Notes under the pieces: model-generated
What the model saw: the letters and a program-made list of their open reading frames with translations, nothing else
Database searches by the model: none
Told to the model about the DNA's origin: nothing
Made by a program: the position numbers and the translations under genes
Origin: Coriobacteriales bacterium
Lineage (GTDB): Bacteria; Actinomycetota; Coriobacteriia; Coriobacteriales; UBA8131
NCBI GenBank assembly: GCA_031268525.1
Contig: JAIRXA010000042.1
Coordinates: 1 to 62,448 of the forward strand
Direction of reading: 5' to 3'
DNA: 62,448 bases
Part shown: positions 5,461 through 50,853 of the stretch, in pieces
How positions within the stretch are numbered: position 1 is the first letter of the stretch
Layout: every line of letters starts with the position of its first letter

Positions 5461-7959
5461 CTATTCACCGATTTTTACGAGAGGAGCATAGCCAAGAAGC
5501 AGCTTCTTGGTCGAACCACTCTTGTGAAACTCGATGGTGATCGCCTCGCCGTCGACCGCAAGCACCACTCCCCTGCCAAAGGTTTTATGATCGATCTCGT
5601 CACCGACCGAAAAGATGAGCGATTCGCGGATGTTGCGCATGGCTTCGCGTTCGGCATTCGCCGTATCGTTTGTGGTGCCACTCGAACCGAAGACTCTGCT
5701 CTCTCCGAGCTCCTTCCTTGAGCCTGAGCCAAAGGTGCCCTGTCGATCACCACGTTTCTCCCAGCCAAAACCGCGATAGGATTGCGAGCCGACTCCGCTG
5801 ATCTTGAGCAATGTCACAGGAATCTCGGCAACAAAGCGCGAGCGCGGATTGGTCTGGGTACGACCAAAGAGATTGCGCGTCTGGGCATGAGTGACGAACA
5901 GGAGCTCACGTGCTCGCGTGATGGCGACATAGGCAAGACGTCGCTCTTCCTCGACGCCACTCTCCGCCTCAAAGGCGGCGACATGAGGGAAGAGCGATTC
6001 CTCGAGTCCAGCAATGAAGACAACGGGGAATTCAAGGCCCTTGGCAGAATGAATGGTCATGAGGGTGAGATAGTCCTCCCCTGCAAGCAGACTGTCGAGG
6101 TCCGAACGAAGGGCCAGCCACTCCATGAAGGCAATGAGTTGAGGAGCAGGGGCGTCGGAAGCGAGATCGGACGTGGCGTCCACGAGCCCTGGTGCGGGAT
6201 CGGCAGGATCGGACGTGGTGTCCACGAGCCCTGGTGCGGGATCGGCAGGATCAGCGAGCCCTGGTGCGGGATCACCGATATCACCGGGTTCGCCGAGCTC
6301 GGTGGGATTGTCAACAGTATCAACAAAAGCTGGAGCGAGAATGGAGGTCTCATCGGCCGATGAGGGATCATCTTCGAGCTCATCGACCTCATCCTCGGTG
6401 TGAATCTCATCGTATTCCTGAGTAACGCCGAAGAACTCCTGAATGTTTTCGATGCGTCCACGCGCCTCGTCGTTGTGCTCCGCTTCAAGTGCAGCGATAA
6501 GACCACTGCGCTCGACCAGCATCTCGACTATGCTGCGCAGGTCACCGCGATAGCCGCGTGCATCCTTTATCAGCTGGCAGAAGCGTGCGAGCTCATCACG
6601 CGCCCTCCTTGACAGGCTGTCCTCCGCACACACAAGCTCGGCTGCCTCCAGAAAACTCACACCGTCATCCCAGGCACGCGCAAGGATATCGGATTCTGCC
6701 TTCTTGCCCAAACCACGCTTGGGAACATTGAGTATACGACGTGCGGCGATATCGTCCCGTGGGTTTACCACAAGCTTCAGATAGGCCATGACATCGCGAA
6801 TCTCCGCGCGGTCAAAGAAGCGTGTGCCGCCGACGATACGATAGGGCACGCCAGCTCGCAGCAACTTGTCTTCCAGCACACGCGATTGGGCGTTCGTGCG
6901 ATAAAAGACCGCAAACTGCCGATACGCGCGCCCCTCGCGGTGTAGTCGTTCAACTTCCGAGGCGATCCAGCGCCCCTCGTCGCGCTCGTCTGCGGCTTGG
7001 TAAAGGGCGATCTGCTCGCCTTTTGATCCTTCGGTGTAGAGGCGTTTGGACTTACGGTTGGCGTTGTTGGCAATAAGCGCGTTGGCTGCATCGAGGATGG
7101 TCGCGGTCGAACGGTAGTTGCGTTCCAGTCGCACGACCCTCGCGTCGGGATAATCCTGCTCGAACTCCAGGATATTGCGAATGTCGGCACCACGCCAGGA
7201 GTAGATCGACTGATCATCGTCACCAACCACCATCAGATTGCGCGTCGCGGCGGCCAGCAGGGTGCAGATGCGATACTGGGCATGGTTGGTATCCTGATAC
7301 TCATCGACGAGCAGGTACTGAAAACGCCTCTGGTAGGCGCCCAGTACCTCTGGGTTATCGCGCAAGAGCAACCAGGCATTGAGAAGCAGGTCGTCAAAAT
7401 CCATCGCATCGGATTGTCGCAGACGCGCCTGGAGCGCCTGGTAGAGCCGCGCAACCAGGCGAGTATACGCGTTGTCTGCCTGCGCCTCATACGCATCGGG
7501 AGTCAGTAGTTCGTTTTTCGCCTGCGAGATACTGGCGCGGATCCGGTTGATCGGGAACTGTCGAGGATCGACATTTGCCTGTGCGTAGAGCTCTTTGAAC
7601 AGACGCTTGCTGTCGTCCTCATCATAGATAGAGAAATTCCGGGTATAACCCAGCAGGGTTGCATCCTGCCGAAGCAGACGCACGCACATCGCATGAAAGG
7701 TCTGCACCCACATGCCGCGTAGACCACCCGCCAGCAGCTCGGAAAGACGCTCGCGCATCTCAGCTGCTGCTTTATTCGTAAAGGTGATCGCGAGTATCTG
7801 GTAAGGCGAGACGCCGATATCCTCGATGAGGTGTGCAATGCGGTAAGTCAAAACGCGCGTCTTACCGCTGCCGGCACCCGCGAGCACCAACAGAGGCCCC
7901 TCGGTCGTCTCAACCGCTCTACGCTGCTCCGTATTCAGACTTGAGAGATCGACAGCCAT
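5461..7959 (-). CDS. pcrA: ATP-dependent DNA helicase PcrA/UvrD family, with a repetitive acidic/Pro-rich insertion
   Basis: LNTEQRRAVE, AGAGSGKT (Walker A), DEYQDTN, TIHSAKGLEF and VAITRA helicase motifs. An insertion (PAPGLADPADPAPGLVDTTSDPADPAPGLVD) lies before motif V. Confidence 0.92.
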   Translation of the reverse strand: MAVDLSSLNTEQRRAVETTEGPLLVLAGAGSGKTRVLTYRIAHLIEDIGVSPYQILAITFTNKAAAEMRERLSELLAGGLRGMWVQTFHAMCVRLLRQDATLLGYTRNFSIYDEDDSKRLFKELYAQANVDPRQFPINRIRASISQAKNELLTPDAYEAQADNAYTRLVARLYQALQARLRQSDAMDFDDLLLNAWLLLRDNPEVLGAYQRRFQYLLVDEYQDTNHAQYRICTLLAAATRNLMVVGDDDQSIYSWRGADIRNILEFEQDYPDARVVRLERNYRSTATILDAANALIANNANRKSKRLYTEGSKGEQIALYQAADERDEGRWIASEVERLHREGRAYRQFAVFYRTNAQSRVLEDKLLRAGVPYRIVGGTRFFDRAEIRDVMAYLKLVVNPRDDIAARRILNVPKRGLGKKAESDILARAWDDGVSFLEAAELVCAEDSLSRRARDELARFCQLIKDARGYRGDLRSIVEMLVERSGLIAALEAEHNDEARGRIENIQEFFGVTQEYDEIHTEDEVDELEDDPSSADETSILAPAFVDTVDNPTELGEPGDIGDPAPGLADPADPAPGLVDTTSDPADPAPGLVDATSDLASDAPAPQLIAFMEWLALRSDLDSLLAGEDYLTLMTIHSAKGLEFPVVFIAGLEESLFPHVAAFEAESGVEEERRLAYVAITRARELLFVTHAQTRNLFGRTQTNPRSRFVAEIPVTLLKISGVGSQSYRGFGWEKRGDRQGTFGSGSRKELGESRVFGSSGTTNDTANAEREAMRNIRESLIFSVGDEIDHKTFGRGVVLAVDGEAITIEFHKSGSTKKLLLGYAPLVKIGE
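6165..6279. repeat. About 2.7 copies of a 42-bp tandem repeat inside pcrA
   Basis: gatcggacgtggcgtccacgagccctggtgcgggatcggcag (6165-6206) is repeated at 6207-6248 with one mismatch. A partial third copy follows. Confidence 0.9.
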
Positions 7960-9014: not shown

Positions 9015-9156
9015 ACAACAACCCTTCTCTTGGTACCTTTGGTTCATTTGTGCGGATTCGTAGTCTAGCATAGAGTGAAAGGGTGCAGGAGGAATTGTGA
9101 GCAGCACGTCGGGAACCAGACATGAGCGCTCTTTATCGATCACTGAATAATTACTC

Positions 9157-9414
9157 TTAAAAGACCACGGATTTGTACGTAAAGTTCAGGCAGTTACTGC
9201 AAGGAAGTACGGCGGATATCTCATTAGGGTCGGTGGTCGCACGTCCGTTGCCGCACGCGACATAGCTGCCCCAAGTCTGGTAGTAGGTCCTCGCCACATA
9301 ATTGGCGCAATGTTCACGATCATGCGGTGCTTCGGCTTTTCCTGATGCCGACGATCCGCCACTCACTTGCTCAAGCTCTTTGTCCGACAACGCCTTTTCG
9401 TCCAATTCGCTCAT
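9157..9414 (-). CDS. Double-glycine-leader peptide precursor (class II bacteriocin / signalling-peptide-like), 85 aa
   Basis: The leader MSELDEKALSDKELEQVSGG matches the LSxxELxxIxGG double-glycine consensus. The 65-aa core has 4 Cys. A strong RBS (aaggaga) lies 6 nt upstream of ATG 9412-9414. Confidence 0.7.
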   Translation of the reverse strand: MSELDEKALSDKELEQVSGGSSASGKAEAPHDREHCANYVARTYYQTWGSYVACGNGRATTDPNEISAVLPCSNCLNFTYKSVVF

Positions 9415-9761
9415 GGTGTTCTCCTTCGATCAGCGACTCCCTGATTCTCATGCGATGAAAACTTGCCCAGAGCCGCAAGACTTCTATTGATTTCCACTAT
9501 ACTACATTATGTTAACGGCCTGCTCATTACCAATATTCATAAACAATACCTTTGTCGCCTTAGTATGCCTTGAGCAGAGATCTCTGAAGAGGCAGCTCTG
9601 CTCAAAAATCAAAACGGTCTGTAGTAAAATGACACGGCAAGGACTTAAGATAAACTGAGATTTTCTCGCCGCTTTGATCAGATGAGAGGCATTGCCATGA
9701 AACTCAATGCGGAAATTATCGCGCAGAATCTTCAGAAGGCGATGGATGTTCAAATTATAGG

Positions 9762-9773
9762 CCCCCCCCCCCC
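9762..9773. repeat. Poly-C homopolymer (12 nt) at the frame junction of the PucR-type regulator gene
   Basis: 9761-9780 reads gccccccccccccagaaact. The upstream frame (ATG 9697) and the downstream frame (ORF 9845-11245) meet exactly here, one nucleotide out of register. Confidence 0.95.
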
Positions 9774-9844
9774 AGAAACTTTCACTGAGGCATACCTGCT
9801 TTCTCGAAAAGGATACCGTACTGGAATCGGATTCTGTCTACCTG

Positions 9845-11245
9845 ATGGAACATGCTGACCCGGGCAGAGTTCCGTTACTGCCAGAGGGTTGCCTTCTGGT
9901 CGTTATCGACGAAGATCCGACCAATCTGGGGAAATGGCGCTATTCCAGCACGGTCAATAATCTGACGCTCCTGGTGGTAAAGAACCGGATTAAGATTACT
10001 GCAGTCTGCAACCACATCCTCAAAATCTTTGAACACTTCACAACATGGGAGAATCAACTCAGAGAAATTATTCAAGGTTCTGGAAACATAAAGGAAATGA
10101 TTACCATAAGCGTACCGAATTTCGAAAATCCAATTGGCGTGGTAGATCAAAAAATGCAGGTCATAACTTCTGTGGATATCGTGGATTCGCAGTTTGCTGA
10201 AACATCAATGAAATACTCTGTCAATGACAGGCCGACCTTTCCCAAAGACATACCGGCGGAGCTGATCATGAAAAATCACATCAAATATAAGGCAAAGCGT
10301 GTTCCCTATTTTTATGTGGATAAATCGATTTACTCTGTCAATCTGTTTTCTGACGATGACTATATCGGCTCGGTAAGTCTCGCAGCCAAATTTCGACCAT
10401 TGACACATGCCGACATGGCTCTATTTGAATTTTTGGCAGAATTTTTACGTGAAGGATTATTGAAGCTCACGCCCGTTAAGGTTCATGAGAAAACCTGCCT
10501 GAGAAGTGTATTCATCAGTCTGTTGAAGAAAGCTGAAGTCAATGGAAAAGCCATCAAGGAGGCTTATCGGGGCCTCGATGACAAGCATCAATTTACAATC
10601 CTATGTCTTTATAACTCAACAATACATAGAGACATTCCCCCTGAATATATATGCGAACAGATAGAGCTCAGAATAGACGGATCATTGGCGACCTGCGTAG
10701 ATTCGGAGATTGTTATCCTTCTGAGTCTTGATGCACGGCAAAGCAATCTCGAGGATGCAATTCGCGGAATTTCCAGTTTTCTCGCAGAGTTCGATTTCCT
10801 GGCGGGCGTCAGCAACATATTCACCGAATTGGAAGACGTGTATTTCAATTATCTCCAGGCAAAATATGCGTTAGCAATAGGTTCTGGGACCAAGGCGGGT
10901 CAATCCTATTATCTTTTTCAAGAATTTGCCCTGTTATATCTTCTCAATAAAATGCTGGAAGACTTACCGCCCAGGTTCTTCGTGCCACCAAAGTTGATGC
11001 TCCTGAGCAGCTCTGGCAATACTTCAGGTGCAGAATACTGGAAAACACTGCATGTTTATCTGAAGAATTCCATGAACGTAACGCTTACTGCCAATGAACT
11101 TGGAATTACTCGAGGCTCCCTGTACAAACGCCTGGAAAAGATACATAAAATTCTGGGCATCGATCTGTACAACGCGAAATACCGATTGTATGTCGAAATC
11201 TGCATGAGTCTCATCGAATGGAACATCGAAAGCAAACAGGGGTAG
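9845..11245 (+). CDS. PucR/CdaR-family transcriptional regulator; as assembled it lacks its probable first ~49 codons, which lie in another frame from ATG 9697
   Basis: The C-terminal HTH (MNVTLTANELGITRGSLYKRLEKIHKILGIDL) is typical of the PucR C-terminal domain. There is no RBS before ATG 9845, but gagagg lies 8 nt before ATG 9697. This frame is open back to 9761. Confidence 0.8.
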   Translation: MEHADPGRVPLLPEGCLLVVIDEDPTNLGKWRYSSTVNNLTLLVVKNRIKITAVCNHILKIFEHFTTWENQLREIIQGSGNIKEMITISVPNFENPIGVVDQKMQVITSVDIVDSQFAETSMKYSVNDRPTFPKDIPAELIMKNHIKYKAKRVPYFYVDKSIYSVNLFSDDDYIGSVSLAAKFRPLTHADMALFEFLAEFLREGLLKLTPVKVHEKTCLRSVFISLLKKAEVNGKAIKEAYRGLDDKHQFTILCLYNSTIHRDIPPEYICEQIELRIDGSLATCVDSEIVILLSLDARQSNLEDAIRGISSFLAEFDFLAGVSNIFTELEDVYFNYLQAKYALAIGSGTKAGQSYYLFQEFALLYLLNKMLEDLPPRFFVPPKLMLLSSSGNTSGAEYWKTLHVYLKNSMNVTLTANELGITRGSLYKRLEKIHKILGIDLYNAKYRLYVEICMSLIEWNIESKQG

Positions 11246-11296
11246 AAAGGTTCTGAGACGGCATTATCGCTACAGATGCCTATCGTTTCATCGATA

Positions 11297-11348
11297 GAAA
11301 AATACCCAATAATGCCATGGCGCATTTGCAACCATGGCATTATTGGGT
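11297..11348 (-). terminator. Intrinsic terminator after the MDR dehydrogenase gene
   Basis: A 17-bp perfect stem, acccaataatgccatgg (11304-11320) / ccatggcattattgggt (11332-11348), is followed on the minus strand by attttt. Confidence 0.7.
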
Positions 11349-11369
11349 GTCGATAAGGCGAGGGGTACC

Positions 11370-12395
11370 TCAATAGACGATGGTGACCTTCTGAGATTCG
11401 GCAGGATTATTGGCCATCTTGAAAGCCTCAAGTATGTCATCCTGTTTGAACTGGTGTGATATAAGTGGAGCAAGATCGTATTTGTTTGATTTCATCATTT
11501 CAAGAACGTCAGGGGCAACATCTTCATAGCGACCATCGCCACATCCGCAGATACAGAGATCGTTATAGCAAACCTTTATGAGATCGAGTGTCTTTGGATG
11601 ATGGTGAACTCCTACGATCGATAAAACTGCACATCTTGATGCAAGTTCCATAAAGTAATCAACACCTACATCAACTGTCAGAGCATCTACATATAAATCT
11701 GCGCCACAGCCTTCGCCCATAAATTTCCGCTTCGTCCCAAACTCAGACTTAGCCCTTTCTGCAAGATCCTCGTTTTGAGGATTACAGACAAGGAAGCCAA
11801 AACTCTCTGCATTTTTCAGGCGATAATCAGAGATATCAACGACCATAACCCTATCGCAGCCATACCAATCCAGCATGATGGCAGAAGACATTCCAATAAT
11901 GCCTGCACCGAAAACTATGCCGGTTTTGCCCGGACCGGGATTCGTCCGTCTGGCCCCCTTTGTGCCGATGACAAAAGGTTCGAGAAGTACAGAAGAAAGG
12001 AGCGGTATATCCCTGTCGATCTTGATGGCGCTGAAATTAATCTCGAAATCTGGGATATGGACATATTCGGAAAAGCCACCGACGGTTGCTGTACGCATAT
12101 AGTCACGCTTGGCATTGCCCATATTGGGGAATACATGGTCCCCGATCTCGATATCCTTGACGTTCTTTCCAACCTCGATGACTTCACTTGTCATTTCATG
12201 CCCGAATTCAGAACCCTCCCAAATCATGTTGGCGTCGCCACCTAGATTGAAGGCAGCAAGATCGCCACCGCAAATTCCAGCTATTCTATTTTTCACAATT
12301 ACATCATTATCGCCGCATTGTGGATAAGGCAACTCCTCAATATCGATTTTCCCAATCCCTTTGTAGATTGCAGCTTTGTAGGTTTTTTGCGTCAT
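11370..12395 (-). CDS. Zinc-type medium-chain dehydrogenase/reductase (MDR family)
   Basis: GICGGDL (catalytic Cys), FGHE, a GDHV motif, and a GAGIIG Rossmann motif. No structural-zinc Cys cluster is visible. Confidence 0.85.
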   Translation of the reverse strand: MTQKTYKAAIYKGIGKIDIEELPYPQCGDNDVIVKNRIAGICGGDLAAFNLGGDANMIWEGSEFGHEMTSEVIEVGKNVKDIEIGDHVFPNMGNAKRDYMRTATVGGFSEYVHIPDFEINFSAIKIDRDIPLLSSVLLEPFVIGTKGARRTNPGPGKTGIVFGAGIIGMSSAIMLDWYGCDRVMVVDISDYRLKNAESFGFLVCNPQNEDLAERAKSEFGTKRKFMGEGCGADLYVDALTVDVGVDYFMELASRCAVLSIVGVHHHPKTLDLIKVCYNDLCICGCGDGRYEDVAPDVLEMMKSNKYDLAPLISHQFKQDDILEAFKMANNPAESQKVTIVY

Positions 12396-12438
12396 AGTCT
12401 ATTCTCCTTCATGCCTGTACCTGGAATCTGATATGTAT

Positions 12439-12498
12439 TTTGACCATCAAGCTGGCTGAAGAAATGCTCTATGGAACCAAGCCAGCTTGATGGTCAAA
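12439..12498. repeat. 19-bp perfect inverted repeat with a 22-nt loop, between the GcvT-like gene and the MDR gene
   Basis: Arms are tttgaccatcaagctggct (12439-12457) and agccagcttgatggtcaaa (12480-12498). No U-tract on either strand. Confidence 0.85.
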
Positions 12499-12525
12499 TA
12501 GTGCGTCAGTGACTGAATTGCAGAA

Positions 12526-13584
12526 TCATGCGAAAACTCTTTCGGTCAAAGTTCCTGAATATCCGTTAATGACAATGCGATCGCCGATCTTTGCCTTATC
12601 GGCATCGACAAGGGCAAAGCCGATGCTTCGTTCGGAGATGTAGCCATAGGTAAACTTTGTTACACGACCCACCTCTTCGCCACCCATCAATACCGGATGC
12701 CCCGAGCCGCCCCTGTCTTTGGGATGAATATGGACATCGTCCTCGTCTGTGATAAAGCCCAACAGAGTACGCTTTGGCCCTTCTTCTTTGATTTTCAACA
12801 AGGCTTCCTTACCGATAAAATCTTTATTCCAATCGACCCCATCAGCCAGACCAACCTCAAAGGGGTTTGCCCACTGGATATCGGCCATCAGATAGAAGCC
12901 CTTCTCCGTCGGAAGGCTTAAGGCCATAATCTGGAATTCCTGCACTTCGACAGCGCCGAAGTCCTTGCCAGTTTCAGCAAGCTTGGCTTCAATGGTTTCG
13001 CAGAACGCGGGAGAAACATAGATCTCATAGCCCACTTTCTCGCCGGTAAATCCACCCCTGTTGATTTTCACGGGGATGTCATCGATCTTGTTGTCAAGAA
13101 TCTGGAAGAATTTCTGATCATCAATATTCTTTTCAACAAGTGCATTAACCAAGTCTTTTGATTTGGGGCCCTGTACGGCATACATATCCCATTGGTCGGT
13201 GATGATTTCATAGGTAACATCATAGTCGCCCTTATGAGTATCAAGCCATCTCGTTAATTTGACAGCATACAGCGTTGAGACCCAGAATTTGTTTTCTTCG
13301 AGGCGAAATACAACCACATCATCAAGAATCTGAGCCTGCTCATTGAGCATGGTGGTGTATCTGGCACGGCTGACTTCCAAATTGGAAATGGGCTTCAGGT
13401 AAATCAAATCCAGGAAGGCGGCCGCATCCTTGCCGGTAACTTCGACCAGATGATGCGTGAAATAATACCAGCCCACGGTATTTCTTACCGCCTCATGCTC
13501 CCTACGCTTCCAATCATCGTATTTGTATACGTTTTTAAAGATTTTCATCTCATCGAATCTATAAGCGTCTTCGTTTTTAAACAT
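12526..13584 (-). CDS. Aminomethyltransferase (GcvT) family folate-binding protein
   Basis: 352 aa with GcvT-like architecture: VGWYYFTHHLVEVTGKDAAAFLD, YAVQGPKS, INRGGFTGEKVGYEIYV, and a C-terminal barrel GRVTKFTYGYISERSIGFALVD. Confidence 0.8.
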   Translation of the reverse strand: MFKNEDAYRFDEMKIFKNVYKYDDWKRREHEAVRNTVGWYYFTHHLVEVTGKDAAAFLDLIYLKPISNLEVSRARYTTMLNEQAQILDDVVVFRLEENKFWVSTLYAVKLTRWLDTHKGDYDVTYEIITDQWDMYAVQGPKSKDLVNALVEKNIDDQKFFQILDNKIDDIPVKINRGGFTGEKVGYEIYVSPAFCETIEAKLAETGKDFGAVEVQEFQIMALSLPTEKGFYLMADIQWANPFEVGLADGVDWNKDFIGKEALLKIKEEGPKRTLLGFITDEDDVHIHPKDRGGSGHPVLMGGEEVGRVTKFTYGYISERSIGFALVDADKAKIGDRIVINGYSGTLTERVFA

Positions 13585-13635
13585 GCTCGGTACACCCTTT
13601 CATCTAATAGAACTGTCTCTGAACAAGAGACAATA

Positions 13636-14961
13636 TTAGAGACAGAATTTGTCGACCTTCTTTGCGATCTTAATGCGGAACTTACCCTCGGGGACATCTT
13701 CTGTTTCTTCCCAGAGAGACCACGCGGAACCAATCAAAGTTTTGCTCATGCCATACCACATCGGAATGTAAGCATCCTTCATAAACGCCATGCCATTCTC
13801 GAATCTCTTGATATCAATGTCGTAGATGACATCGTCTTTGTTAAAGGCGACGATGTCGTACTGGTTCTTCCTGGCTTGCAGATAAACCTCTATGTAGGCG
13901 CCCAAAACACGACCGTCATTGACATCATTGGGAACGCCCAGCCAATCGCGAAGGCCCTTGACCGCATAGGCGTCAAGGAACATCATCTTTCCAACACCTC
14001 GAAACATCAACTCAAAGAGGGCGCTTACCTCTTCACGGGTGACTTCGCCTTTTTTAATCATGTCCTGAAGTGCGAACGTGACATAATCGCAGCCGAGGTT
14101 GCTTCCTGAGCTCACGTCATAGCCACCTCTGCCGCCACCTTCTCCGGCGGCGTTATACTCGGCACAGGTTCCTGTGCGATACTTGAACTCACAGTCTTCA
14201 CGAAACATCTGGAGGCCCCTATAATCGAGCTTTTCCTCCTCGGGGGTGTATTTAACGAGCTCCGGTGCAGCTAAAGGACCAAAGTTATCCCATTTTTCTC
14301 GTGGTGGCATGGGAAACTTGTCAGGGTTTTCGCCAATCATGCGACAATGTGGATCGCCACAACCTAAAGCCTCGACCATGGTCACGCGTAACTCTGGGCC
14401 GCGGTCCCTGCTGAATCTTTTCCATGAATCACCGAGCTTTTCCGTACCTGCCCAAGGAGAGGTATGGCAGATCTCTGTGCCTAAGATGTCCCAGGGGCAG
14501 GTATCCAATTCCTTTTCAAAGCGGAAAGAACCAAAGTCGTTGACGCGCCCAGCCATAAACAGACTCTCGTCACCATTATCGCCCGACATGGCCGTCGGAA
14601 AACAACCTCTCATGAAGGGAAAGACGTCCATGGTTACGGCTGTCGGTTTGCAAAAATTTCTGCCTTCAGGTTCAGGGGCGAACATTTTAATATAGAACTC
14701 ATCAGCAGTGTCACAGCAGCGGGTGACACGAGTTGCATAGTCAGGAATATAATGACGAAGTACCTCATAGAACACAGCGCCTACGCCCGCACGATGGCGA
14801 GCAATGAATACCATCGCATCATACAGAGAGATAAGTTTCTCCCAGGGAGTCTTTATAGCTGGATTATCGGGCAGATGACCTTTACCTATGTCGTTGGGTA
14901 AACGGGTGTCGATTGTATTACTCATAATGTCTAACAACTCCTTCCAGAATTTATCATTCAT
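13636..14961 (-). CDS. Hypothetical Cys-rich protein, 441 aa, no family recognised
   Basis: Long ORF 51 nt upstream of the GcvT-like gene on the same strand. It has about 19 Cys in clusters (TRCCDT, LGCGDPHCR, EDCEFKYRTGTCAEY) and a GEGGGRGGY tract. No TM helix or signal peptide is evident. Confidence 0.7.
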   Translation of the reverse strand: MNDKFWKELLDIMSNTIDTRLPNDIGKGHLPDNPAIKTPWEKLISLYDAMVFIARHRAGVGAVFYEVLRHYIPDYATRVTRCCDTADEFYIKMFAPEPEGRNFCKPTAVTMDVFPFMRGCFPTAMSGDNGDESLFMAGRVNDFGSFRFEKELDTCPWDILGTEICHTSPWAGTEKLGDSWKRFSRDRGPELRVTMVEALGCGDPHCRMIGENPDKFPMPPREKWDNFGPLAAPELVKYTPEEEKLDYRGLQMFREDCEFKYRTGTCAEYNAAGEGGGRGGYDVSSGSNLGCDYVTFALQDMIKKGEVTREEVSALFELMFRGVGKMMFLDAYAVKGLRDWLGVPNDVNDGRVLGAYIEVYLQARKNQYDIVAFNKDDVIYDIDIKRFENGMAFMKDAYIPMWYGMSKTLIGSAWSLWEETEDVPEGKFRIKIAKKVDKFCL

Positions 14962-15143
14962 TCAATGTGCTCTATCAGAACGTTGCTGCCTCTCTCCCTT
15001 CTCAAACCTATTCGTTTATTCAACCTGTTCCATAAGCATTTCTCTTTTTGCCTCCTCTCCTTCTGCTTATCGTGTTGATTCGAATTCAAGTTGATAGGAT
15101 TTTTTGATCCCACTCGCGGAAAGATTCACAACCTATGTTTTGT

Positions 15144-16568
15144 CTAGGCCTGCGGCTTTGATTTCACCAGGAACTGCCCCATGACCAAAGCTATGACAGC
15201 TATGGCAGTGGCAATGACGAGCGCTACGTTCATTCCCTGCGTAATGCCAAAACTGGCCATAATCAGTGTATAGACAGCCATGCCAATGCTTGAACCGAGA
15301 TTTTGTGCTGTCTGCACCAACGAATTGGCTTGAAATCGCAATTCAGGCTTGATTTGGATTTGCGGCGCAGTCGACGAGGTGACGTTTTGTTGTGCAGAAT
15401 ACAGACCCGCAATAAACATCAACACATAGACGATCGGGAGCGGCGTTTGAGGAGATAGGATGATTATGACCGCTATGGTTACCACGATTCTCACCAGGGT
15501 ACCCACGGTGATCAAACCACGAGCGCTGCCTTGGCGCACAATCAATTTCCCCAGAAATGGACTGATAAAAATGCCCGGCACGGCATAAATGGCTGTGCTG
15601 AACGCTGCGTAGAGACCGCCACCATCTAAAACACTGATAATATATGCAGGCATGAAAAATACCAGAGCATTGGCTGAAGTATTGATGAAGAAATTATAGA
15701 GGGCAAGAGCCACCGTATTACGATCTTTCAGCATTGCCAGGGGGATAAAGGCCTGTTCACGCTTTTTGGAAAAATCTACCAGCAGCATCACAAAACCAAC
15801 CATCGCCACCAAAATAAGTGCATGGGACAGAGGGCTTCCGAATGGAACGTAGGTAGTACCGAGCGATAATGTCATGACCAGTCCGAGCAATAACAAAGTG
15901 AGAGAAAATGCGCCAAGGGCATCAAATCCAACTTTCCCCTTAAGATGGGGAGCTGCCTGAGCCCGAGTGACCTTGACGCCGATCATGATGAAAAGTACTG
16001 CCAGCAGAAGCAGTGGCACACTGATGCGATACGCTACTCGCCAACCCAGAGTGTCGGTTATAAGTCCAATGATCGTTGGCCCAATAAACATACCTATGCT
16101 GGTCACGGTGCCAATAAAGCCAAGGTAGATTGCTGCCTGGCGTGCATTGTACATATCTCGGATCATAGAATACGCCACCACGAAAATGGAAGCGCTTACT
16201 GCTCCATAAAAGAAGTTGACAGCAATAATCACAAACATGTTTGGCGCAAAGGAAATAGCTGTAAAGATTGCAGCGCCCAGTGTTAATGAGCCGGCAAGAA
16301 GAGGGCGCTTCAGTGCTGGATTACCGGCACCCAGAAAACCGTAGATCGGCATGATGCAGATCGACATTGCACCACCAACGCTCGATACCAATGGGTAAAT
16401 ATCCATACCACCAATATCGAGTGCCGCCATGGGTAATAAGGTAAATGTGCCGGTTGAGATGAAGCGCGTAATCAAAGCTGCAAGGTATATACCAATAAGA
16501 GTGAGCCTCTTCTTCGAAGGGGAAGCCATCGCAAAGAGGTTAACCAGCTCTCTTTTCTGTGCATCCAT
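15144..16568 (-). CDS. MFS transporter (14-TM, DHA2-like), paralog 1
   Basis: 474 aa, hydrophobic throughout, with a GxLxDxxGWR-like motif (GLITDTLGWRVAY). Collinear with the two genes upstream. Confidence 0.85.
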   Translation of the reverse strand: MDAQKRELVNLFAMASPSKKRLTLIGIYLAALITRFISTGTFTLLPMAALDIGGMDIYPLVSSVGGAMSICIMPIYGFLGAGNPALKRPLLAGSLTLGAAIFTAISFAPNMFVIIAVNFFYGAVSASIFVVAYSMIRDMYNARQAAIYLGFIGTVTSIGMFIGPTIIGLITDTLGWRVAYRISVPLLLLAVLFIMIGVKVTRAQAAPHLKGKVGFDALGAFSLTLLLLGLVMTLSLGTTYVPFGSPLSHALILVAMVGFVMLLVDFSKKREQAFIPLAMLKDRNTVALALYNFFINTSANALVFFMPAYIISVLDGGGLYAAFSTAIYAVPGIFISPFLGKLIVRQGSARGLITVGTLVRIVVTIAVIIILSPQTPLPIVYVLMFIAGLYSAQQNVTSSTAPQIQIKPELRFQANSLVQTAQNLGSSIGMAVYTLIMASFGITQGMNVALVIATAIAVIALVMGQFLVKSKPQA

Positions 16569-16657
16569 GATATGCGCGCTTCTTTCCTGATAGATACGTT
16601 GCCACGATGGTTCAAGGTCCGGACAATTCTTTGATTGCCCATGTAGGGCTTCTTATC

Positions 16658-16692
16658 TTTCCCAGAGGCGCGTCAACGGCGCCTCTGGGAAA
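16658..16692 (-). other. 14-bp GC-rich hairpin just after the MFS paralog 2 stop
   Basis: tttcccagaggcgc / gcgcctctgggaaa with a 7-nt loop. The trailing U-tract is weak, so terminator function is uncertain. Confidence 0.5.
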
Positions 16693-16706
16693 TCCAGTCG
16701 TACCAA

Positions 16707-18182
16707 TCAGTGTTCTGTCTCTTTCGCAAGTGTTTCCGCCCTTGCTTTTATGTCTTCCTGCTCCTTCTCCTCGTTCCAATCAGGTTTCTTCATGATTATT
16801 CCGCAGATCATGAGTGCCACAGCTCCGGCAAGGGCCAGATAGAGCCCATAGGTCATGCCCTGTTCTTGCCCAAATGCTGTAATAATTGCGGTATACACAG
16901 GAATACTCAATACGCCACCGTAGGTCTGTCCGAGCTGGATGAGCGCATTGGATTGTTGCCGAACCTTAGGCTCGATCATGACCTGAGGTGCCGCGGTTGT
17001 AACAATGTTAGCCGCTGAAGCGTAAAGACCCGCAAGGAGCATCAGAAAATATACGACATAGATATTGGCGCCGGGAACAAGGACGAAAATGAAAACAATG
17101 GTAATAGCCACTCTCCAGGCTCCACTGAACCAGATAACGATAGGTTTAACCGTACCGGATTTTGCTACCCAACGACCAAATATCGGACCGAGGAAAAGGC
17201 CAACGACTGCATAGCACGACATCGCAATGCTTGAAGCACCGGCTCCAGTGCCAAGAACATAAATCAGGAACATGGGCAGGAAGAAGGAAAGGGCCATCGA
17301 AGAGAAGGGGCTGAAGAAGTTTGCTCCAAAGAGCGCAATGGTATTTCTGTTCTTGAACGCAGAAAGGGGAACTATGGCTGCATCTCTCTTTCTCCTGATG
17401 GTAATGATCAAAACAACCAGAGAGATGGCAGCAACCGCGAAAAGCAGATTATTGGCAAGAGTGCCAAATTTTATATAGTTGCCGCCGAGAGAGAGGGCGA
17501 CTATCAGGCTGGCGAGTAAAAAGCTCAGCGAAAGCGCCCCTATGAGATCGAACTTTCCCTGCACATACGATATCAATTTTCCTTCTTCTTTGGTAATGCG
17601 AGCACCAAAGAAGACTATGATGGCAGCGATGAGGAAGATTGTCGCCTGAAATCCTGTAACAAAGCGCCAGCTCGCCAGCTCAATCAAGCCACCCGTTAAA
17701 ACCGGACCTACCAACGAACCAACCGCAAGCATGGTTGCGAGAAAGCCCAGGTAAATTCCCGCTTGCTTTTGACTGAAGCAGTCTCTGATTATGGTATAGC
17801 CAAAGGTATACAGTGCAGCTGACGCGAAGCCAATCAAGACTGACGGAATAATAAAAGCCAACATATTCGGAGCAAGCGTACGACCCAGCAAGGCTACGAC
17901 ACCCAAGAGAAAGCCCACGACAAAGCCTGTTCGCTTAAGCGTAGGAAATTTTGCCCCGAGAAAGCCAAAGAGCGGCATTGTGGCAACGCTGATAGGGCCA
18001 ATCACTGATGCGGCAAGGGAGTAGATGTCTTCTCCGCCTATATCCTGTGCCGCCATCGGCAGAAGTATTGAGTTGCCCATTGCTATTGTGATGGATCCGA
18101 ACATTCCGATATAAACGCCAATTACCGTCAGCATTTTTCGTACTTGAGTATTATTTCGATAGGGATTTACCACGTCCATCAT
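16707..18182 (-). CDS. MFS transporter, paralog 2
   Basis: Very similar along its length to paralog 3, for example ITKEEGKLISYVQGKFDLIGAL and the tail MKKPDWNEEKEQ. Start trimmed to ATG 18180-18182, preceded by ggaga and matching paralog 3's MDAVNPY start. Confidence 0.85.
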   Translation of the reverse strand: MMDVVNPYRNNTQVRKMLTVIGVYIGMFGSITIAMGNSILLPMAAQDIGGEDIYSLAASVIGPISVATMPLFGFLGAKFPTLKRTGFVVGFLLGVVALLGRTLAPNMLAFIIPSVLIGFASAALYTFGYTIIRDCFSQKQAGIYLGFLATMLAVGSLVGPVLTGGLIELASWRFVTGFQATIFLIAAIIVFFGARITKEEGKLISYVQGKFDLIGALSLSFLLASLIVALSLGGNYIKFGTLANNLLFAVAAISLVVLIITIRRKRDAAIVPLSAFKNRNTIALFGANFFSPFSSMALSFFLPMFLIYVLGTGAGASSIAMSCYAVVGLFLGPIFGRWVAKSGTVKPIVIWFSGAWRVAITIVFIFVLVPGANIYVVYFLMLLAGLYASAANIVTTAAPQVMIEPKVRQQSNALIQLGQTYGGVLSIPVYTAIITAFGQEQGMTYGLYLALAGAVALMICGIIMKKPDWNEEKEQEDIKARAETLAKETEH

Positions 18183-18306
18183 TCTGTCTCCAAACCGTTT
18201 CTCGTTTCCGCAAGGTACGAAGAATGGCTGGACAGCGAGCTGCCGCCACTCTTCGTCATATTCTGTCTTTGCCAAAGACACCAAAAAACACGCTTCTGGG
18301 AATTAA

Positions 18307-19791
18307 TCACACCGAACTGTCGTTGTCCGTCTCTTTCGCAAGTGTGGCCGCTCTTGCCTGTATCGCTGCCTGTTCCTTTTCTTCATTCCAATCGGGTTTC
18401 TTCATGAAGAAACCCAGGATCATGAGCACGATTGCGCCCGTAAGAGCTATACAGAGACCGTAGGTCATGCCTTGTTCCAGACCAAATACCCCGATGATGG
18501 CTGTGTAGGTTGCAATACCCAATACGCCACCAAAGTTCTGCGTGAGCTGAATGAGTGCATTGGATTGTTGCCGAATGCTCGGTTCAATCATAATCTGAGG
18601 CGCTGTGGCAGAAGTAATGTTGTTTGCATTGGCATACATGCCCCCCAAAAACATCAGGGCATAGATGACATAGAGATTCGCTCCGGGAACAAGTACGAAG
18701 ATGAAAGCAATGGTAATGACTACTCTCCAGGCTCCACTGAACCAGATGACGATGGGCTTTGCCGTACCAACTCTTGCTACCCAACGACCAAATATGGGAC
18801 CGAGGAAAAGACCGAGGATTGCATAGCACGAAACCGCAATGCTCGAAGCACCGGCTCCAACACCGAGAATATAAATGAGAAACATGGGCAAGAAGAAGGA
18901 GAGTGCCATTGAATCGAAGGGACCGAGAAAGTTTGCTGCAGCAAGTGCAATGGTATTTCGACTCTTAAACGCAGAACGAGGCACTATGGCGGCGTCACCT
19001 TTCTTTCTGATGACAAAGATTAAAACAATTAAAGCGATCAATGCGGCAGCCAGGAGAAGTATGTTAAAAGGAGTACCGAATTTTATGTAGTTGCCACCAA
19101 GAGATAAGGCAACTATCAGGCCGCCGAGTAAAACGATAATCGCCAAGGCTCCTGCAAGGTCGAACTTCCCCTGTACATACGATATCAGTTTCCCCTCTTC
19201 CCTGGTGATGCGAGCACCGAAGAAGACTATGATGGCAGAAATAATGAAGAGTGTTGCCTGAAACGCTGGGACAGATCGCCAGCCAAACAACTCAATGAAA
19301 CCACCCGTTAAAACCGGACCTATCAACGAACCAACTGAGAACATCGATGCTACAAGTCCCAGATAAAACCCCGCCTGTTTTTGGCTGAAGCAATCTCTGA
19401 CCATTGAGTAACCAAATGTATAGAGCGCTCCTGATTCGATGCCAAGTAAGGCCGATGGAATGATAAAGGCGACCATATTCGGAGCAATGATTCGGCATAT
19501 CAGGGCTACAGCGCCCAATAGGAAGGCCGTACAAAAACCAATGCGCTTGATGTGGGGGAATTTTGCTCCGACATAGCCAAAAAGAGGCATTGCTACCACG
19601 CTCAAAATGCCACCTATTGTCGCAGCCAATGAGTAGATTTCTTCCCCTCCTATATCCTGCGCCGCTACCGGAAGCAGTATTGAGTTACCCATGGCAATCG
19701 TAATGGCGGAGACCATACCAACATAGATGCCGACGACTGTCAGCATCTTTCGCGCTTGAGAATTCTTCTGGTAGGGATTCACTGCGTCCAT
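18307..19791 (-). CDS. MFS transporter, paralog 3
   Basis: Start set to MDAVNPYQKNSQARKMLTV, with ggaga before ATG 19789-19791. ITREEGKLISYVQGKFDLAGAL and the tail MKKPDWNEEKEQ mirror paralog 2. Confidence 0.85.
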   Translation of the reverse strand: MDAVNPYQKNSQARKMLTVVGIYVGMVSAITIAMGNSILLPVAAQDIGGEEIYSLAATIGGILSVVAMPLFGYVGAKFPHIKRIGFCTAFLLGAVALICRIIAPNMVAFIIPSALLGIESGALYTFGYSMVRDCFSQKQAGFYLGLVASMFSVGSLIGPVLTGGFIELFGWRSVPAFQATLFIISAIIVFFGARITREEGKLISYVQGKFDLAGALAIIVLLGGLIVALSLGGNYIKFGTPFNILLLAAALIALIVLIFVIRKKGDAAIVPRSAFKSRNTIALAAANFLGPFDSMALSFFLPMFLIYILGVGAGASSIAVSCYAILGLFLGPIFGRWVARVGTAKPIVIWFSGAWRVVITIAFIFVLVPGANLYVIYALMFLGGMYANANNITSATAPQIMIEPSIRQQSNALIQLTQNFGGVLGIATYTAIIGVFGLEQGMTYGLCIALTGAIVLMILGFFMKKPDWNEEKEQAAIQARAATLAKETDNDSSV

Positions 19792-20577
19792 TATTCCGTC
19801 TCCAATCCTTTCTTGCTCGTATGTGGGCATGCATTGCAGCTCTCTGTCTTTTTATTGACTGGTTTGAACAGAGCAGCGACTGGCTAACGTATGTAACTCA
19901 TCGTTTCATATTCAGCTATCAAGGTGCACCTATAAAACTTCTTGAAATACCCCTTGACTTCCATGGTTGGGTCGCTCGAAGCCCTCTTATTCATATTCCT
20001 CTCAGTGATATCTACCCTCTCAATTGTCAGGTCAATCTCTCCTGCTTCTCTGGGAAACAGGATGGTAACCATTTGAAAACCATCTGTTATTCTTATTCAA
20101 AAATGCAGCATTTGATATACGGCAAACTGTTTCCCAAAAGCCCTGAATTGGTGCACACTTTATAACCTGAGCCCGCAGATGGGCAAAGCGGTTTATGCCT
20201 TTCTACCAGCACAAATAGCTCTTGTGATGTCTCCAGGATAATCTTTGCAGCGAAACGGCTTTTACGGGGAGGTGCCTTCCTGGGCATTACTTCCCTCTTC
20301 AAGCCACTCGGTTGAGGCGATGAGGCCGATCAGTTGTGTGCGTCCCGCCACCAAGTCCATCAATACCCTCTCAATACCACGCATGCTCGAAACAGGGGCA
20401 GCGACAGGCGGGAAACAAAATGTGCACCAAAACACACAGGTAAAGCAACAGCTTGCTGTCTAGGGAAAGGCACGTATTGAGGAGATAATGGAAGTACCTT
20501 GTGGCTGGGTATTTCTCGTACCCACCCCTGAAGGAGCAGGATGAAAGGTAGATTCTTTTCGAGAGGAGAAGCATTTC

Positions 20578-21585
20578 ATGCGAGCAGCCATTTATCATGA
20601 TATACAGGATGTTTCTATTGAAGAGATACCGGATCTTCGCTGTGGAGCCAGGGACGTTCTGGTCAGGAATGTCCGGGCAGGCATCTGCGGCTCTGATGTT
20701 ACCGGCTATTTTAAGGGTGGTAAATATGCCGGAATTTATGAGGATAGACAGTTTGGCCACGAAAATGCGGGTCGTATAGTTGAAGTCGGAAAAGATGTTG
20801 AAGGATTCGGCGTTGGAGATAAGGTCTTTGTCAATCCCAATAGAGCCATTGCGCCAGGCGAGGGAGATATGCTTGGCGCTTTTTCTGAATATATTCTCGT
20901 GCCGAACGCAGAGGCCAATTACAACATATTTCTACTCCCTGAAAACATGAGTTACGATGTCGCTGTTTTGATTGAGCCTTTTTCTGTTGGCATACATGGA
21001 TATAATGTTGCAGGCGTGAAGCCAGATGACCATGTCGTCGTTTATGGGGTTGGAACGATCGGCATCAGCAGTATCTGTGGCCTCCTTGCCAAAGGCATCA
21101 AACCGGTCGCGATGGTAAGAAGCAATGCCAAAAGAGAGTTTCTTGAGCGAGCGGGAGCCATCGTGTGCAATATCAATGAAGTAGACCGGTTTGAATTTTT
21201 GAGAGAAACATTCGGAACAACACTTCATAGAAATCGCTATCCTGCAATCGATGTCGATCTTGTCATTGACGCTGCAGGCGGTCCTGAAATCGTTGCGGAT
21301 TTCCTTCAAATGTGTAAGCCGAAATCAAAGTTGTCAGTTCTTGCTGTCGTTTTTGAGCCATTTCCTGTACCGATGGCCCGTCTTATGAGTTCAGAAACGA
21401 TAATCATGGGATCCTGTGGTTTTAACGAGGAAGATGTCCTTGAGGCCATCGATAATTTGACTTCAGGCAAGACGCTGATGCCTGGGATCATTACAAGCCA
21501 CTACAAACTCGATCAGATCAATGAGGCGATCGTAATGGCACAAAACCGTGAAAAATCAATTAAAGTTCTTATTGATATGGAGTAG
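20578..21585 (+). CDS. Zinc-type medium-chain dehydrogenase/reductase (MDR family), second copy
   Basis: GICGSDV, FGHENAG, GDKVFVNP and a GVGTIG Rossmann motif. Same subfamily look as 11370-12395. Confidence 0.85.
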   Translation: MRAAIYHDIQDVSIEEIPDLRCGARDVLVRNVRAGICGSDVTGYFKGGKYAGIYEDRQFGHENAGRIVEVGKDVEGFGVGDKVFVNPNRAIAPGEGDMLGAFSEYILVPNAEANYNIFLLPENMSYDVAVLIEPFSVGIHGYNVAGVKPDDHVVVYGVGTIGISSICGLLAKGIKPVAMVRSNAKREFLERAGAIVCNINEVDRFEFLRETFGTTLHRNRYPAIDVDLVIDAAGGPEIVADFLQMCKPKSKLSVLAVVFEPFPVPMARLMSSETIIMGSCGFNEEDVLEAIDNLTSGKTLMPGIITSHYKLDQINEAIVMAQNREKSIKVLIDME

Positions 21586-21651
21586 TCTCCTTCGACACGT
21601 AAGCCATATCACCTCGGTCGTGCTGGAAGATCACTACAGAAGGGATGCCTT

Positions 21652-22173
21652 GTGCACGAAACACTACTGAATAAATATGCAATAAACCATATCGGATATT
21701 ACGTTAAAGATCTTGAGTTGGCCTGTAGAGAACATTCTGCTCTTTTCGGATCGGGTCCGTTCTTTTACCTGGGCGAACACACAATGACGAGTATCGCGAG
21801 AGGCAGGGAATATGAATATACCTCCCGAGCGGCTTTCGGACAATTTGGAGACCTTCAGATAGAGTTCATTCAGGTGATCAGCGACAACCCCAGTGCCTAT
21901 AAAGAAATGGAACGATTCGGCCTCAATCATTTTTCAATCTGGGTTGATAACGTGGATAGCGCAATTGAAGAATTCGAGAACGCGGGCTATGAAATCGCGA
22001 TGCGACTGAAATCAAGCGGAGGTGCCGAGATCATCTACTTTGATGGTGTAGAAAAATGGGGGCACTATCTGGAAGTCAGCGCTCCTGCCGAGGGTATGTA
22101 TGAGTACTTCAAGAAGGCCGCTGAAGACTGGGATGGCTCAGAACCCTATCGTAGGCTCAATATGGGTAAGTAA
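21652..22173 (+). CDS. VOC (glyoxalase/bleomycin-resistance/dioxygenase) family protein
   Basis: INHIGYYVKDLE...FGLNHFSIWVDNVD...WGHYLEV shows the paired beta-alpha-beta-beta-beta module pattern. GTG start per the ORF track. Confidence 0.75.
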   Translation: MHETLLNKYAINHIGYYVKDLELACREHSALFGSGPFFYLGEHTMTSIARGREYEYTSRAAFGQFGDLQIEFIQVISDNPSAYKEMERFGLNHFSIWVDNVDSAIEEFENAGYEIAMRLKSSGGAEIIYFDGVEKWGHYLEVSAPAEGMYEYFKKAAEDWDGSEPYRRLNMGK

Positions 22174-22226
22174 GATAGCAGAATAAAAGTATAGTATCAT
22201 CTTCTGCCTGAGGCGATCCAGTGGGC

Positions 22227-41766: not shown

Positions 41767-42114
41767 CTAATCGGCCGGTCCCATACGAATGGGCATCAGT
41801 GCCCCCCCGAGTACGTGTACATGGAGATGGTGTACCGTCTGTCTACCATCATCGCCGGTGTTGACGATGATGCGATAGCCTTTCTCGTCCACACCCTTGA
41901 GTCGTGCAACGGTCGCGACGGTAGCAAAGAGATGGCCCAGGAGGGGCTCTGGCACTTCGTCGCCAATGTGGCTGTAATGGTGCTTCGGTATGATCAGGAC
42001 GTGTACCGGCATCTGAGGATTTGCGTCCTCAAAGGCAATGACCTGATCATCCTCATAGACGATCCTGGCGGAAATCTCACCTTGTGCAATCGCACAGAAA
42101 ATGCAGTCCGGCAT
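41767..42114 (-). CDS. HIT-family (histidine triad) protein
   Basis: CIFCAI...PVHVLIIPKHH...QTVHHLHVHVLGG carries the HxHxHxx motif. Confidence 0.9.
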   Translation of the reverse strand: MPDCIFCAIAQGEISARIVYEDDQVIAFEDANPQMPVHVLIIPKHHYSHIGDEVPEPLLGHLFATVATVARLKGVDEKGYRIIVNTGDDGRQTVHHLHVHVLGGALMPIRMGPAD

Positions 42115-47992: not shown

Positions 47993-48374
47993 GGTTGCAA
48001 TGAGGCGTGCTCCTTTGACCATCCGTGAGGAAAGCCCGGCCTCGCCTATAGATAATATATCACCGACGCTTCTGGACTTCAATCACGTCACTCGCGTCAC
48101 TTTTCCATCTTTAGCAATCATGATGATCCGGTAGATGCTCTTCCTTTGCGTGAGATACCGCGATAGCTCGGAGGCAATCCTTTTATCGTCGAGCTAGGGA
48201 AGTGTGGCGAGACAAAAAAAGTACCTTTGCTTTTTGCTTTTTGCTTTTTGTCTTGCGTTCGTATGCAGAGAGCCGTAGGGTCGAGCGTAGGTTCCGCTCC
48301 TACAGATTCGTCCCTGCAGGTCCGTCCGATCCGCACCTACGATCCACTCCCGTTTTTGCCCGCGTAGGACTGTA

Positions 48375-48446
48375 TTTCGCTGTTAATGCGCGCGAAAGAC
48401 AACCGCTGAGGAGAAAATCGGTTGACTTTCGCGCGCATTAACGAAA
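48375..48446. repeat. Long imperfect inverted repeat / hairpin (about 28-bp arms, 13-nt loop)
   Basis: tttcgctgttaatgcgcgcgaaagacaaccg ... cggttgactttcgcgcgcattaacgaaa. The core 17 bp, gttaatgcgcgcgaaag, is perfect. Confidence 0.85.
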
Positions 48447-48638
48447 CTTTTGGCTCTCCGCCACCACTTAAAATAAATCTCCGCTCTCACATAGTCGCCA
48501 AAGTCCTACGCATTCTGAAGATATCATCCGGCAAAAAAATTCGTCCTATGGACCAGAGTAAACATCCAACTATGCAGATCATATCACGCAAAATCAACAG
48601 GCCTGAAGTCGATGAGCTTCTGGCCTGCAAAAATGACG

Positions 48639-48683
48639 TGGTGCGCGATACTGGATTTGAACCAGTGGCCCCTACCGTGTCAG
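48639..48683 (-). pseudogene. Orphan 3' half of a tRNA-Val gene (att-like duplicate)
   Basis: tggtgcgcgatactggatttgaaccagtggcccctaccgtgtca aligns with the 3' 45 nt of tRNA-Val at 52297-52341 (5 differences). The sequence beyond cannot form the anticodon stem, D-arm or acceptor 5' strand. Confidence 0.8.
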
Positions 48684-49017
48684 TCGCTCCATCGAGCGCA
48701 TCAGCATGTACCAGTACGAAGCAGAAAGGCCTATCTATCTGCAAGAATGGATGCTGCGACTTCGCGCAGCATGACGTGCAAGGAGTTTATGCACAGGTTG
48801 CAAGTCCCGTTGTCCCACATATATCTACACAGGATATCCAAACGTTGTAGTGTGGCTCCTGAATGGACTGCACCGGCTTGGGTATCAAGAGGCGTGCACC
48901 TCGGCACTCACGTCTCCTGTCAACTGCGCAATTTTGATGCTCGTGACAGCTTTGTTGGTGTGGTAGAATTATGAGAATTAAGAAATAGAATAAAATTAAT
49001 AGATTTGAGGTGCTTTC

Positions 49018-49664: not shown

Positions 49665-49772
49665 CCTTGGGAGAGCCTGGGGGACGACGCAGGAGTCAGT
49701 GGTAGGAGGTGGGGCAAGGTAGTCTGTCGGTTTTGTGACGTTTTACAGGCTTTTGAGACAGCCCATTTTTCG

Positions 49773-50822: not shown

Positions 50823-50853
50823 TTTTTACCTCCACACTACCAGTATGACTACC

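Follow-up and report, generated by a model that had tools for sequence, protein, structure and literature searches.

A 12-nucleotide poly-C tract at the frame break of a PucR-type regulator gene in a Coriobacteriales island: a candidate slippage-driven switch

The window analyzed here is a stretch of 62,448 nucleotides from a Coriobacteriales bacterium (GenBank assembly GCA_031268525.1, contig JAIRXA010000042.1, positions 1 to 62,448 of the forward strand). It contains a gene for a transcriptional regulator of the PucR/CdaR family, and direct reading of the sequence places a homopolymer of 12 cytosines (C12) on the forward strand precisely at the break in the reading frame of this gene. The features of the regulator locus, all on the forward strand, are given below with the evidence for each.

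9629 to 9656, +: promoter-like site ATGACA-16 nt-TAAACT, a weak candidate from a consensus scan (9 of 12 matches).
9684 to 9689, +: Shine-Dalgarno-like GAGAGG, read directly; the ATG at 9697 gives the family N terminus MKLNAEII.
9697 to 9761, +: 5′ segment of the regulator gene, codons 1 to 21 and the first two bases of Gly22 (tblastn with the relative P0129).
9762 to 9773, +: C12 homopolymer, codons 22 to 26, in the N-terminal domain loop with the lowest conservation.
9774 to 11245, +: remainder of the regulator gene through its stop codon, encoding what is left of the N-terminal domain plus the GAF-like, GGDEF-like, and HTH_30 domains (P0129 tblastn, Pfam, Foldseek).
9845 to 9847, +: annotated ATG (466 amino acids), by family alignment from residue 1 an internal Met50, with no Shine-Dalgarno sequence.
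9856 to 9858, +: TGA closing the 53-amino-acid product of the C12 allele, 11 nt past ATG 9845.

The C12 tract stands apart from everything else in the window. C runs of 6 nt occur three times, of 7 nt once (41802 to 41808), and of 12 nt once, with no other long homopolymer; the longest G run is 6 nt, and the second-longest G/C run after C12 is 7 nt. In dinucleotide-preserving shuffles, C11 was matched on average 0.06 times and C12 was reached in 2 of 100 shuffles. Across 1.09 Mb of sequence surrounding 111 related loci, no G/C run of 9 nt or longer was present, and no frame break was found at any other homopolymer of at least 6 nt in the window. The C12 tract is thus a stark outlier and not a chance feature.

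The open reading frame (ORF) starting at ATG 9697 opens with MKLNAEIIAQNLQKAMDVQIIGPPPP... and ends at the TGA at 9856 to 9858 after 53 amino acids, and the long regulator ORF is open from stop to stop between 9761 and 11242, in the +1 frame relative to the upstream ORF. The tract and its surroundings read ...ATTATAGG-CCCCCCCCCCCC-AGAAACTTTC..., the C run spanning 9762 to 9773. The codons that directly follow the run in the 0 frame (CCA GAA ACT) seem, on inspection, to be neither rare codons nor stops. When the length of the tract was varied in silico, C11 and C14 each produced a continuous ORF from ATG 9697, of 515 and 516 amino acids, respectively, and C10, C12, and C13 gave products of 29, 53, and 30 amino acids. 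In the C11 reading the run is GG[C CCC CCC CCC C]AG, encoding Gly22-Pro-Pro-Pro-Gln26. Apart from the single frame shift, both halves of the gene are free of stop codons, and the lesion would therefore be recent or reversible.

Homology ties the two ORFs together. An initial protein search returned four distant relatives (24 to 27% identity; 502 to 513 amino acids) that covered 96 to 99% of the fused query and had N termini (MKLNADII...) that pair with the short ORF upstream. In genome and metagenome contigs, pattern-based scans led to 109 loci, a set ascertained partly through the MKLNA peptide itself, with about 100 genes of 495 to 540 amino acids that start MKLNA[DE]I[IV] or, when GTG initiated, VKLNADII. 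To offset this ascertainment, an exhaustive, pattern-independent HMMER search was run against 1.84 billion representative proteins, yielding 122 relatives at an E value of ≤1e-30. Residue 1 of the query pairs with residue 1 of the relative in most of the best 150 matches, and the closest relatives begin MMINAEIIAQNLTKSMDVQLMG... The nearest relative, P0129 (38% identity), begins MMINAEIIAQNLTKSMDVQLMGVPSKSLKLKR... and matched the window by tblastn in two consecutive frames: its residues 1 to 24 on 9697 to 9768 in one frame (71% identity; E value, 2.6e-7) and residues 24 to 523 on 9767 to 11233 in the next (E value, 1e-101). The frame junction given by this match falls inside the C run.

In the family alignment M1 to I7, L12, and G22 vary little or not at all, and the spacing G22-x5-L28 is identical in 53 of 53 aligned homologues; the window gene conforms to it only as C11 (GPPPQKL). 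Since no other length gives this invariant spacing, the tract is native coding sequence, with the assembly exactly one C too long. That the tract is an inserted poly-G/C artefact was rejected, as its removal shortens a linker of family-invariant length. Among the first 60 positions of the 53-sequence alignment, conservation is lowest at 23 to 27. Two distant homologues, L007 and L010, carry A9 (6070 to 6078) and A8 (6070 to 6077), respectively, at gene nucleotide 70; these runs encode Lys-Lys-Lys in frame within the same loop, which therefore tolerates homopolymer-coded residues. On this family evidence, the two ORFs are one regulator gene split in the C tract, and the 22 codons upstream are part of its coding sequence.

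The first-pass annotation of this DNA, made from the sequence alone, had located the tract at the frame break and predicted that C11 or C14 would fuse the two ORFs; both held when the sequence was reread and the frames recomputed. Its further proposals, that the ORFs form one gene and that the N-terminal ∼49 amino acids belong to the family, were borne out by the consecutive P0129 frames and by the relatives aligning from residue 1. It had also raised the contrary case of homologues beginning at the position corresponding to 9845, which is clearly not so, the upstream segment being conserved.

The public annotation of the regulator (MDR1421595.1, helix-turn-helix domain-containing protein; locus-tag prefix LBI64) is 466 amino acids long and begins at ATG 9845. 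As had been noted earlier, this ATG lacks a ribosome-binding site, with no Shine-Dalgarno-like purine run in the sequence ahead of it (aatcggattctgtctacctg). The GAGAGG at 9684 to 9689 lies 7 nt ahead of ATG 9697, correcting the 8 nt first given. A true start at 9845 was rejected, as the conserved family N terminus lies further upstream, and so was a start at ATG 9682, as the family begins MKLNA, equivalent to 9697. Because family members align from residue 1 upstream, the annotated start is, judged by homology, an artefact of the frameshift, and its ATG is the internal Met50 of the true protein. The 466-amino-acid annotation is accordingly wrong; the gene is better recorded as a 515-amino-acid ORF whose C tract is flagged as a frameshift or a site of low quality. 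With the TGA of the C12 allele only 11 nt after ATG 9845, termination-reinitiation might conceivably give some regulator truncated at its N terminus.

The fused protein has the C-terminal architecture expected of a PucR-type regulator, as had been suggested at first reading. HTH_30 (PF13556) matched residues 448 to 501 (E value, 5.6e-12; 45.7 bits against a cutoff of 27) and a GGDEF-like domain (PF17853, GGDEF_2) residues 326 to 394 (26.6 bits against a cutoff of 24.5), with weak matches to the CdaR, AdeR, and PmfR NCBIfam models across the C-terminal half. Foldseek aligned the C-terminal half with the C-terminal fragment of Rv2242 (E value, 5e-9) and with BAD_0249 (E value, 2e-7), and the GAF-like middle of the protein with the GAF domain of CodY. 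The Pfam PucR N-terminal domain, PF07905, gave no match even at an E value of ≤1. Because this domain is not universal in the family, assignment to the PucR/CdaR family holds on the HTH_30 and GGDEF-like core and on the predicted fold.

An AlphaFold model, built from a shallow alignment of five sequences and of moderate confidence (mean predicted local distance difference test [pLDDT] score, 70.7; 82 to 86 for residues 1 to 20), shows an N-terminal alpha/beta domain with a helix at residues 5 to 13 and strands at 18 to 21, 46 to 51, 66 to 70, and 90 to 94. This domain is specific to the subfamily. The tract-encoded residues sit in a surface loop after strand 18 to 21. According to the model, a product starting from Met50 would lose the helix and strands 18 to 21 and 46 to 51, two of the four listed.

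Comparison with Rv2242 (PDB 9f80) and BAD_0249 (PDB 3onq) shows the same C-terminal HTH_30, GGDEF-like domain, and upstream GAF-like module, and a position beside a catabolic operon is likewise shared with the PucR/CdaR family. The window protein differs in its N-terminal domain of ∼95 residues with no match to the Pfam PucR N-terminal model, and in belonging to an uncharacterized subfamily (MKLNA[DE]I[IV]; ∼500 amino acids) tied to an operon for V4R-like and GcvT-like proteins.

The regulator occupies the left edge of a low-GC (guanine plus cytosine) block from ∼9.1 to 22.2 kb, with 42 to 49% GC against 57 to 60% in the flanks. No integrase and no flanking tRNA were found in the block (9100 to 22200). 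Beyond the regulator it contains the following.

11370 to 19830, −: presumed target operon, encoding a Zn-dependent dehydrogenase, a GcvT-like folate-binding aminomethyltransferase, a 441-amino-acid tandem V4R/H-NOX-like Cys protein, and three major facilitator superfamily (MFS) transporters (Pfam, NCBIfam, structure, synteny).
20578 to 22173, +: second Zn-dependent dehydrogenase and a glyoxalase-fold protein, a divergent pair at the right end of the island (Pfam, GC profile).

Searches by tblastn against the regulator-family loci found homologues of the 441-amino-acid protein in 93 and of the GcvT-like protein in 87, and the 441-amino-acid gene lies upstream of and divergent from the regulator in 89 of 104 loci. 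In L087, from the human gut, the operon order is short-chain dehydrogenase/reductase (SDR), 441-amino-acid protein, GcvT-like protein, SDR. From this synteny with the 441-amino-acid and GcvT-like genes, the regulator would therefore be a dedicated local regulator of an uncharacterized module. MFS transporters co-occur with the regulator in only two other loci. The first-pass annotation had set the regulator at the edge of an accessory island and presumed that it controls the whole of it; the GC profile and the synteny of the family with the core operon of the island uphold the first point, and the second is supported in part, synteny tying the regulator to the V4R-like, GcvT-like, and dehydrogenase module. 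Control of the whole island would have to be inferred from synteny.

Locus L005 (Clostridia bacterium MS499-83) has counterparts for almost the entire island, among them two MFS genes and the second dehydrogenase (ADH2), with identities of 67.5% for the GcvT-like protein, 54 to 56% for the MFS transporters, and 56% for ADH2; the ADH2 homologue there adjoins the regulator. As this closest full counterpart is clostridial and the block is low in GC, the sequence evidence points to horizontal acquisition of the island from Firmicutes. The 441-amino-acid protein has no family assignment. Its predicted structure has a pLDDT of 90, its best Foldseek matches (∼155 aligned columns each) are weak and fall on domains of the H-NOX, V4R (PoxR and MopR sensor), and Bet3 folds, and Cys155, Cys165, Cys201, His205, and Cys206 are invariant or nearly so. 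The closest relatives found for the island (P0010 and P0011; 79 to 83% identity for this protein) are encoded on the short Joint Genome Institute contigs L110 and L111; the regulator gene is not present on these island contigs.

The module to which these genes belong is widespread in gut and rumen Firmicutes and Coriobacteriia (L001 to L109; 12526 to 14961, −, in the window) and comprises an MKLNADII regulator, a V4R-like Cys protein of ∼410 to 440 amino acids, a GcvT-like enzyme, and an SDR or Zn-dependent dehydrogenase. Judged from gene content, it is probably a pathway of folate-dependent demethylation plus oxidation.

Taken together, these features are best explained by a probable switch at the start of the regulator gene. 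The locus encodes one genuine 515-amino-acid PucR/CdaR-family regulator from ATG 9697, in which codons 22 to 26 (Gly-Pro-Pro-Pro-Gln) are written as an unbroken C run and C11 is the in-frame, ON length. The C12 of the assembly is one slippage step away; translation would then end after 53 amino acids, and the only remaining long ORF would start at Met50, without half of the N-terminal domain. Slipped-strand mispairing should flip the gene reversibly between ON (C11, C14, and C8) and OFF (C10, C12, and C13), and switching of the regulator would stochastically switch expression of the horizontally acquired catabolic and transport island. The sequence features of phase-variable loci are present, namely, an uninterrupted repeat within an ORF, in which changes in unit number decide whether the product is complete or truncated, and by these features the locus would rank as a candidate phase-variable locus. 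The behavior that defines such loci is length polymorphism together with frequent, reversible switching that has a phenotype. High-frequency gain and loss of units is expected because a G/C run of 11 to 12 nt is long enough for slipped-strand mispairing, as is established for poly-G/C contingency loci; by analogy, the tract should be hypermutable whether or not the consensus is correct.

The evidence is finely balanced on whether C12 represents a real OFF allele of an on/off switch driven by slippage. This reading presumes C12 to be what truly dominates in the sample, the gene to switch and to do so reversibly, and the regulator to control the neighboring operon, in a direction that would likewise have to be presumed. 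Several observations weigh against this reading. A 12-base homopolymer is the hardest type of site for any sequencing platform. The all-CCC Pro-Pro-Pro could have arisen unselected, host core genes using CCC for 36% of their Pro codons. A G/C tract of at least 7 nt is found in the gene in none of about 100 homologues, which shows no family-level tradition of such a switch. What connects the regulator with regulation of the operon is its synteny. Finally, no second strain or sample carrying the regulator gene was found in the collections searched: the fused protein found no related loci among metagenome contigs, the annotated protein is encoded on no other contig on record, an alignment-based search of genome and metagenome contigs gave relatives of ≤32% identity only, and no relative above 38% identity occurs in the 1.84 billion representative proteins, genome contigs, or metagenome contigs. 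By cluster look-up, the regulator, the neighboring dehydrogenase, and the UvrD protein encoded in the window are singletons among 15 billion proteins.

The strongest rival, possible though on the whole doubtful, is an error in the consensus or assembly, by which the organism has C11 and an intact 515-amino-acid gene and the extra C comes from sequencing, PCR (polymerase chain reaction) stutter, or assembly. The tract would then still be real and slippage prone, and the observed frame break would be the artefact. The perfect collinearity of the C11 protein with the family fits such an error, as does the undamaged remainder of the gene, and +1 is the smallest possible discrepancy, at what is by far the longest homopolymer and the single hardest site in the window; the contig, moreover, belongs to a metagenome-assembled genome and is a single database occurrence. 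Against an error, a short-read consensus normally represents the majority length, and homopolymers of 6 to 8 nt in the window all lie in intact ORFs, with ORFs of up to 905 codons uninterrupted, so that the assembly is not generally indel prone. For the same reason, a generally error-prone long-read assembly was rejected.

It is unlikely that the gene has been fixed in an inactive state, that is, that the regulator was lost by slippage after acquisition of the island and is now a young pseudogene without regular switching. The island is foreign, with its GC of 42 to 49% against 57 to 60% and its best matches among Clostridia (L005), regulators gained by transfer are frequently lost, and no homologue has a comparable tract. 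The gene has a single lesion, however, placed precisely within the hypermutable tract, at a length that differs by exactly one step from that typical of the family; C12 would revert at a high rate, making fixation mechanistically hard to sustain, and the presumed target genes are all intact.

Least probable, and very unlikely, is recoding, in which C12 would be native and full-length regulator made at a low, tunable level by transcriptional slippage or by +1 ribosomal frameshifting on CCC-C, the P-site tRNA-Pro re-pairing perfectly one base downstream with the aid of poly-proline stalling: the downstream frame is indeed +1, the exact shift promoted by slippery CCC-N proline codons (PMC7577736), and the run offers several consecutive CCC-C contexts, but the homologues (∼100 inspected genes and the listed relatives) are all single ORFs, none with the tract, no rare or stop codon is evident after the run in the 0 frame, and Rfam and tRNA scans found nothing near the regulator locus, leaving no Rfam or structural element there to assist. 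Poly-Pro stalling could substitute for a stimulatory element. Suppression of the frameshift can let repeat alleles shifted to OFF still leak (bioRxiv 10.64898/2026.04.01.715767), and the C12 allele may likewise not be fully silent; recoding makes most sense as leakage added to a DNA-level switch and not as a designed expression mode. An extended form of the proposed switch would combine the two, with a gut Coriobacteriales organism bet-hedging a metabolic trait, and not one of surface or virulence, through a 5′ poly-C tract in the regulator of the island and the C12 allele, the one state open to rescue by +1 tRNA-Pro slippage on CCC-C, giving graded and not binary expression; this extension is rather improbable.

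Other observations in the window concern neighboring and more distant genes. At the left edge of the island, an 85-amino-acid ORF (9157 to 9414, −) is divergent from the regulator, starts MSELDEKALSDKELEQVSGG, and has a Cys-rich C-terminal part. It matched the double-glycine bacteriocin leader model TIGR01847 (17.4 bits against a cutoff of 15.7) and no Pfam family, and from this leader match it may be a class II bacteriocin-like precursor. The UvrD/PcrA helicase gene (5461 to 7959, −) contains a 42-bp tandem duplication at 6165 to 6252 (2.1 copies; 97% identical), which preserves the frame, 42 being a multiple of 3. Of the four longest A/T runs in the window, a second low-GC patch (48154 to 50825; down to 37.6% GC) holds three: A7 at 48214, A7 at 48533, and A8 at 50755 to 50762. 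The A8 (T8 on the coding strand) gives Lys-Lys-Lys at codons 5 to 7 of an intact 349-amino-acid membrane protein (MKRSKKKQNE...) and is a further 5′-proximal homopolymer, shorter than C12 and in frame.

Homopolymeric tracts in regulator genes have precedents in pathogens. The bvgS regulator gene of Bordetella pertussis contains a C run. In hypervirulent Klebsiella pneumoniae, the regulator gene rmpA carries a poly-G tract (bioRxiv 10.1101/2025.09.12.675794). In both, a homopolymeric G/C tract in a regulator gene produces ON/OFF variation of a whole regulon, as is proposed for the locus described here, but they concern virulence or capsule traits of pathogens, whereas the window comes from an uncultured gut-type commensal and the genes concerned form a catabolic and transport island. 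In mga of group A Streptococcus, the gain or loss of one C in a poly-C tract (c.1571C[8]) shifts the frame and switches the regulon, reversibly, by slipped-strand mispairing (PMC10330708). The two loci are alike in that the ORF of a transcriptional regulator contains an unbroken poly-C run. The C8 of mga, however, is near the 3′ end and alters the C terminus, whereas C11/C12 is at codons 22 to 26 and the OFF state truncates the protein almost completely; switching has been shown experimentally for mga and is here predicted from sequence, and the regulators belong to different families (Mga and PucR). By analogy with mga, rmpA, and bvgS, the arrangement is the standard architecture of a contingency locus applied to a regulator.

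Homopolymeric tracts at the 5′ end also act as general gene switches, for example, the poly-A of inlA in Listeria (PMC2831843), and homopolymer phase variation is on record for Actinobacteria in the Mycobacterium tuberculosis complex, for example, in glpK (PMC10334774; bioRxiv 10.1101/717272), a precedent within the phylum. With these tracts the window locus shares a near-5′ position leading to early truncation and, by analogy, frameshift rates orders of magnitude above those of point mutation; the inlA and glpK tracts differ in being shorter (7 to 8 nt) and mostly A/T, or C7. A single literature search turned up no case of homopolymer phase variation in Coriobacteriia among its 15 best matches, which is no proof of absence. 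Most accounts of phase variation concern genes for surface and virulence traits in pathogens. Should tract length prove variable within the population, the locus would exemplify phase variation driven by a repeat in Coriobacteriia and, if the proposed switch is real, of a commensal switching a catabolic island through the island's own regulator.

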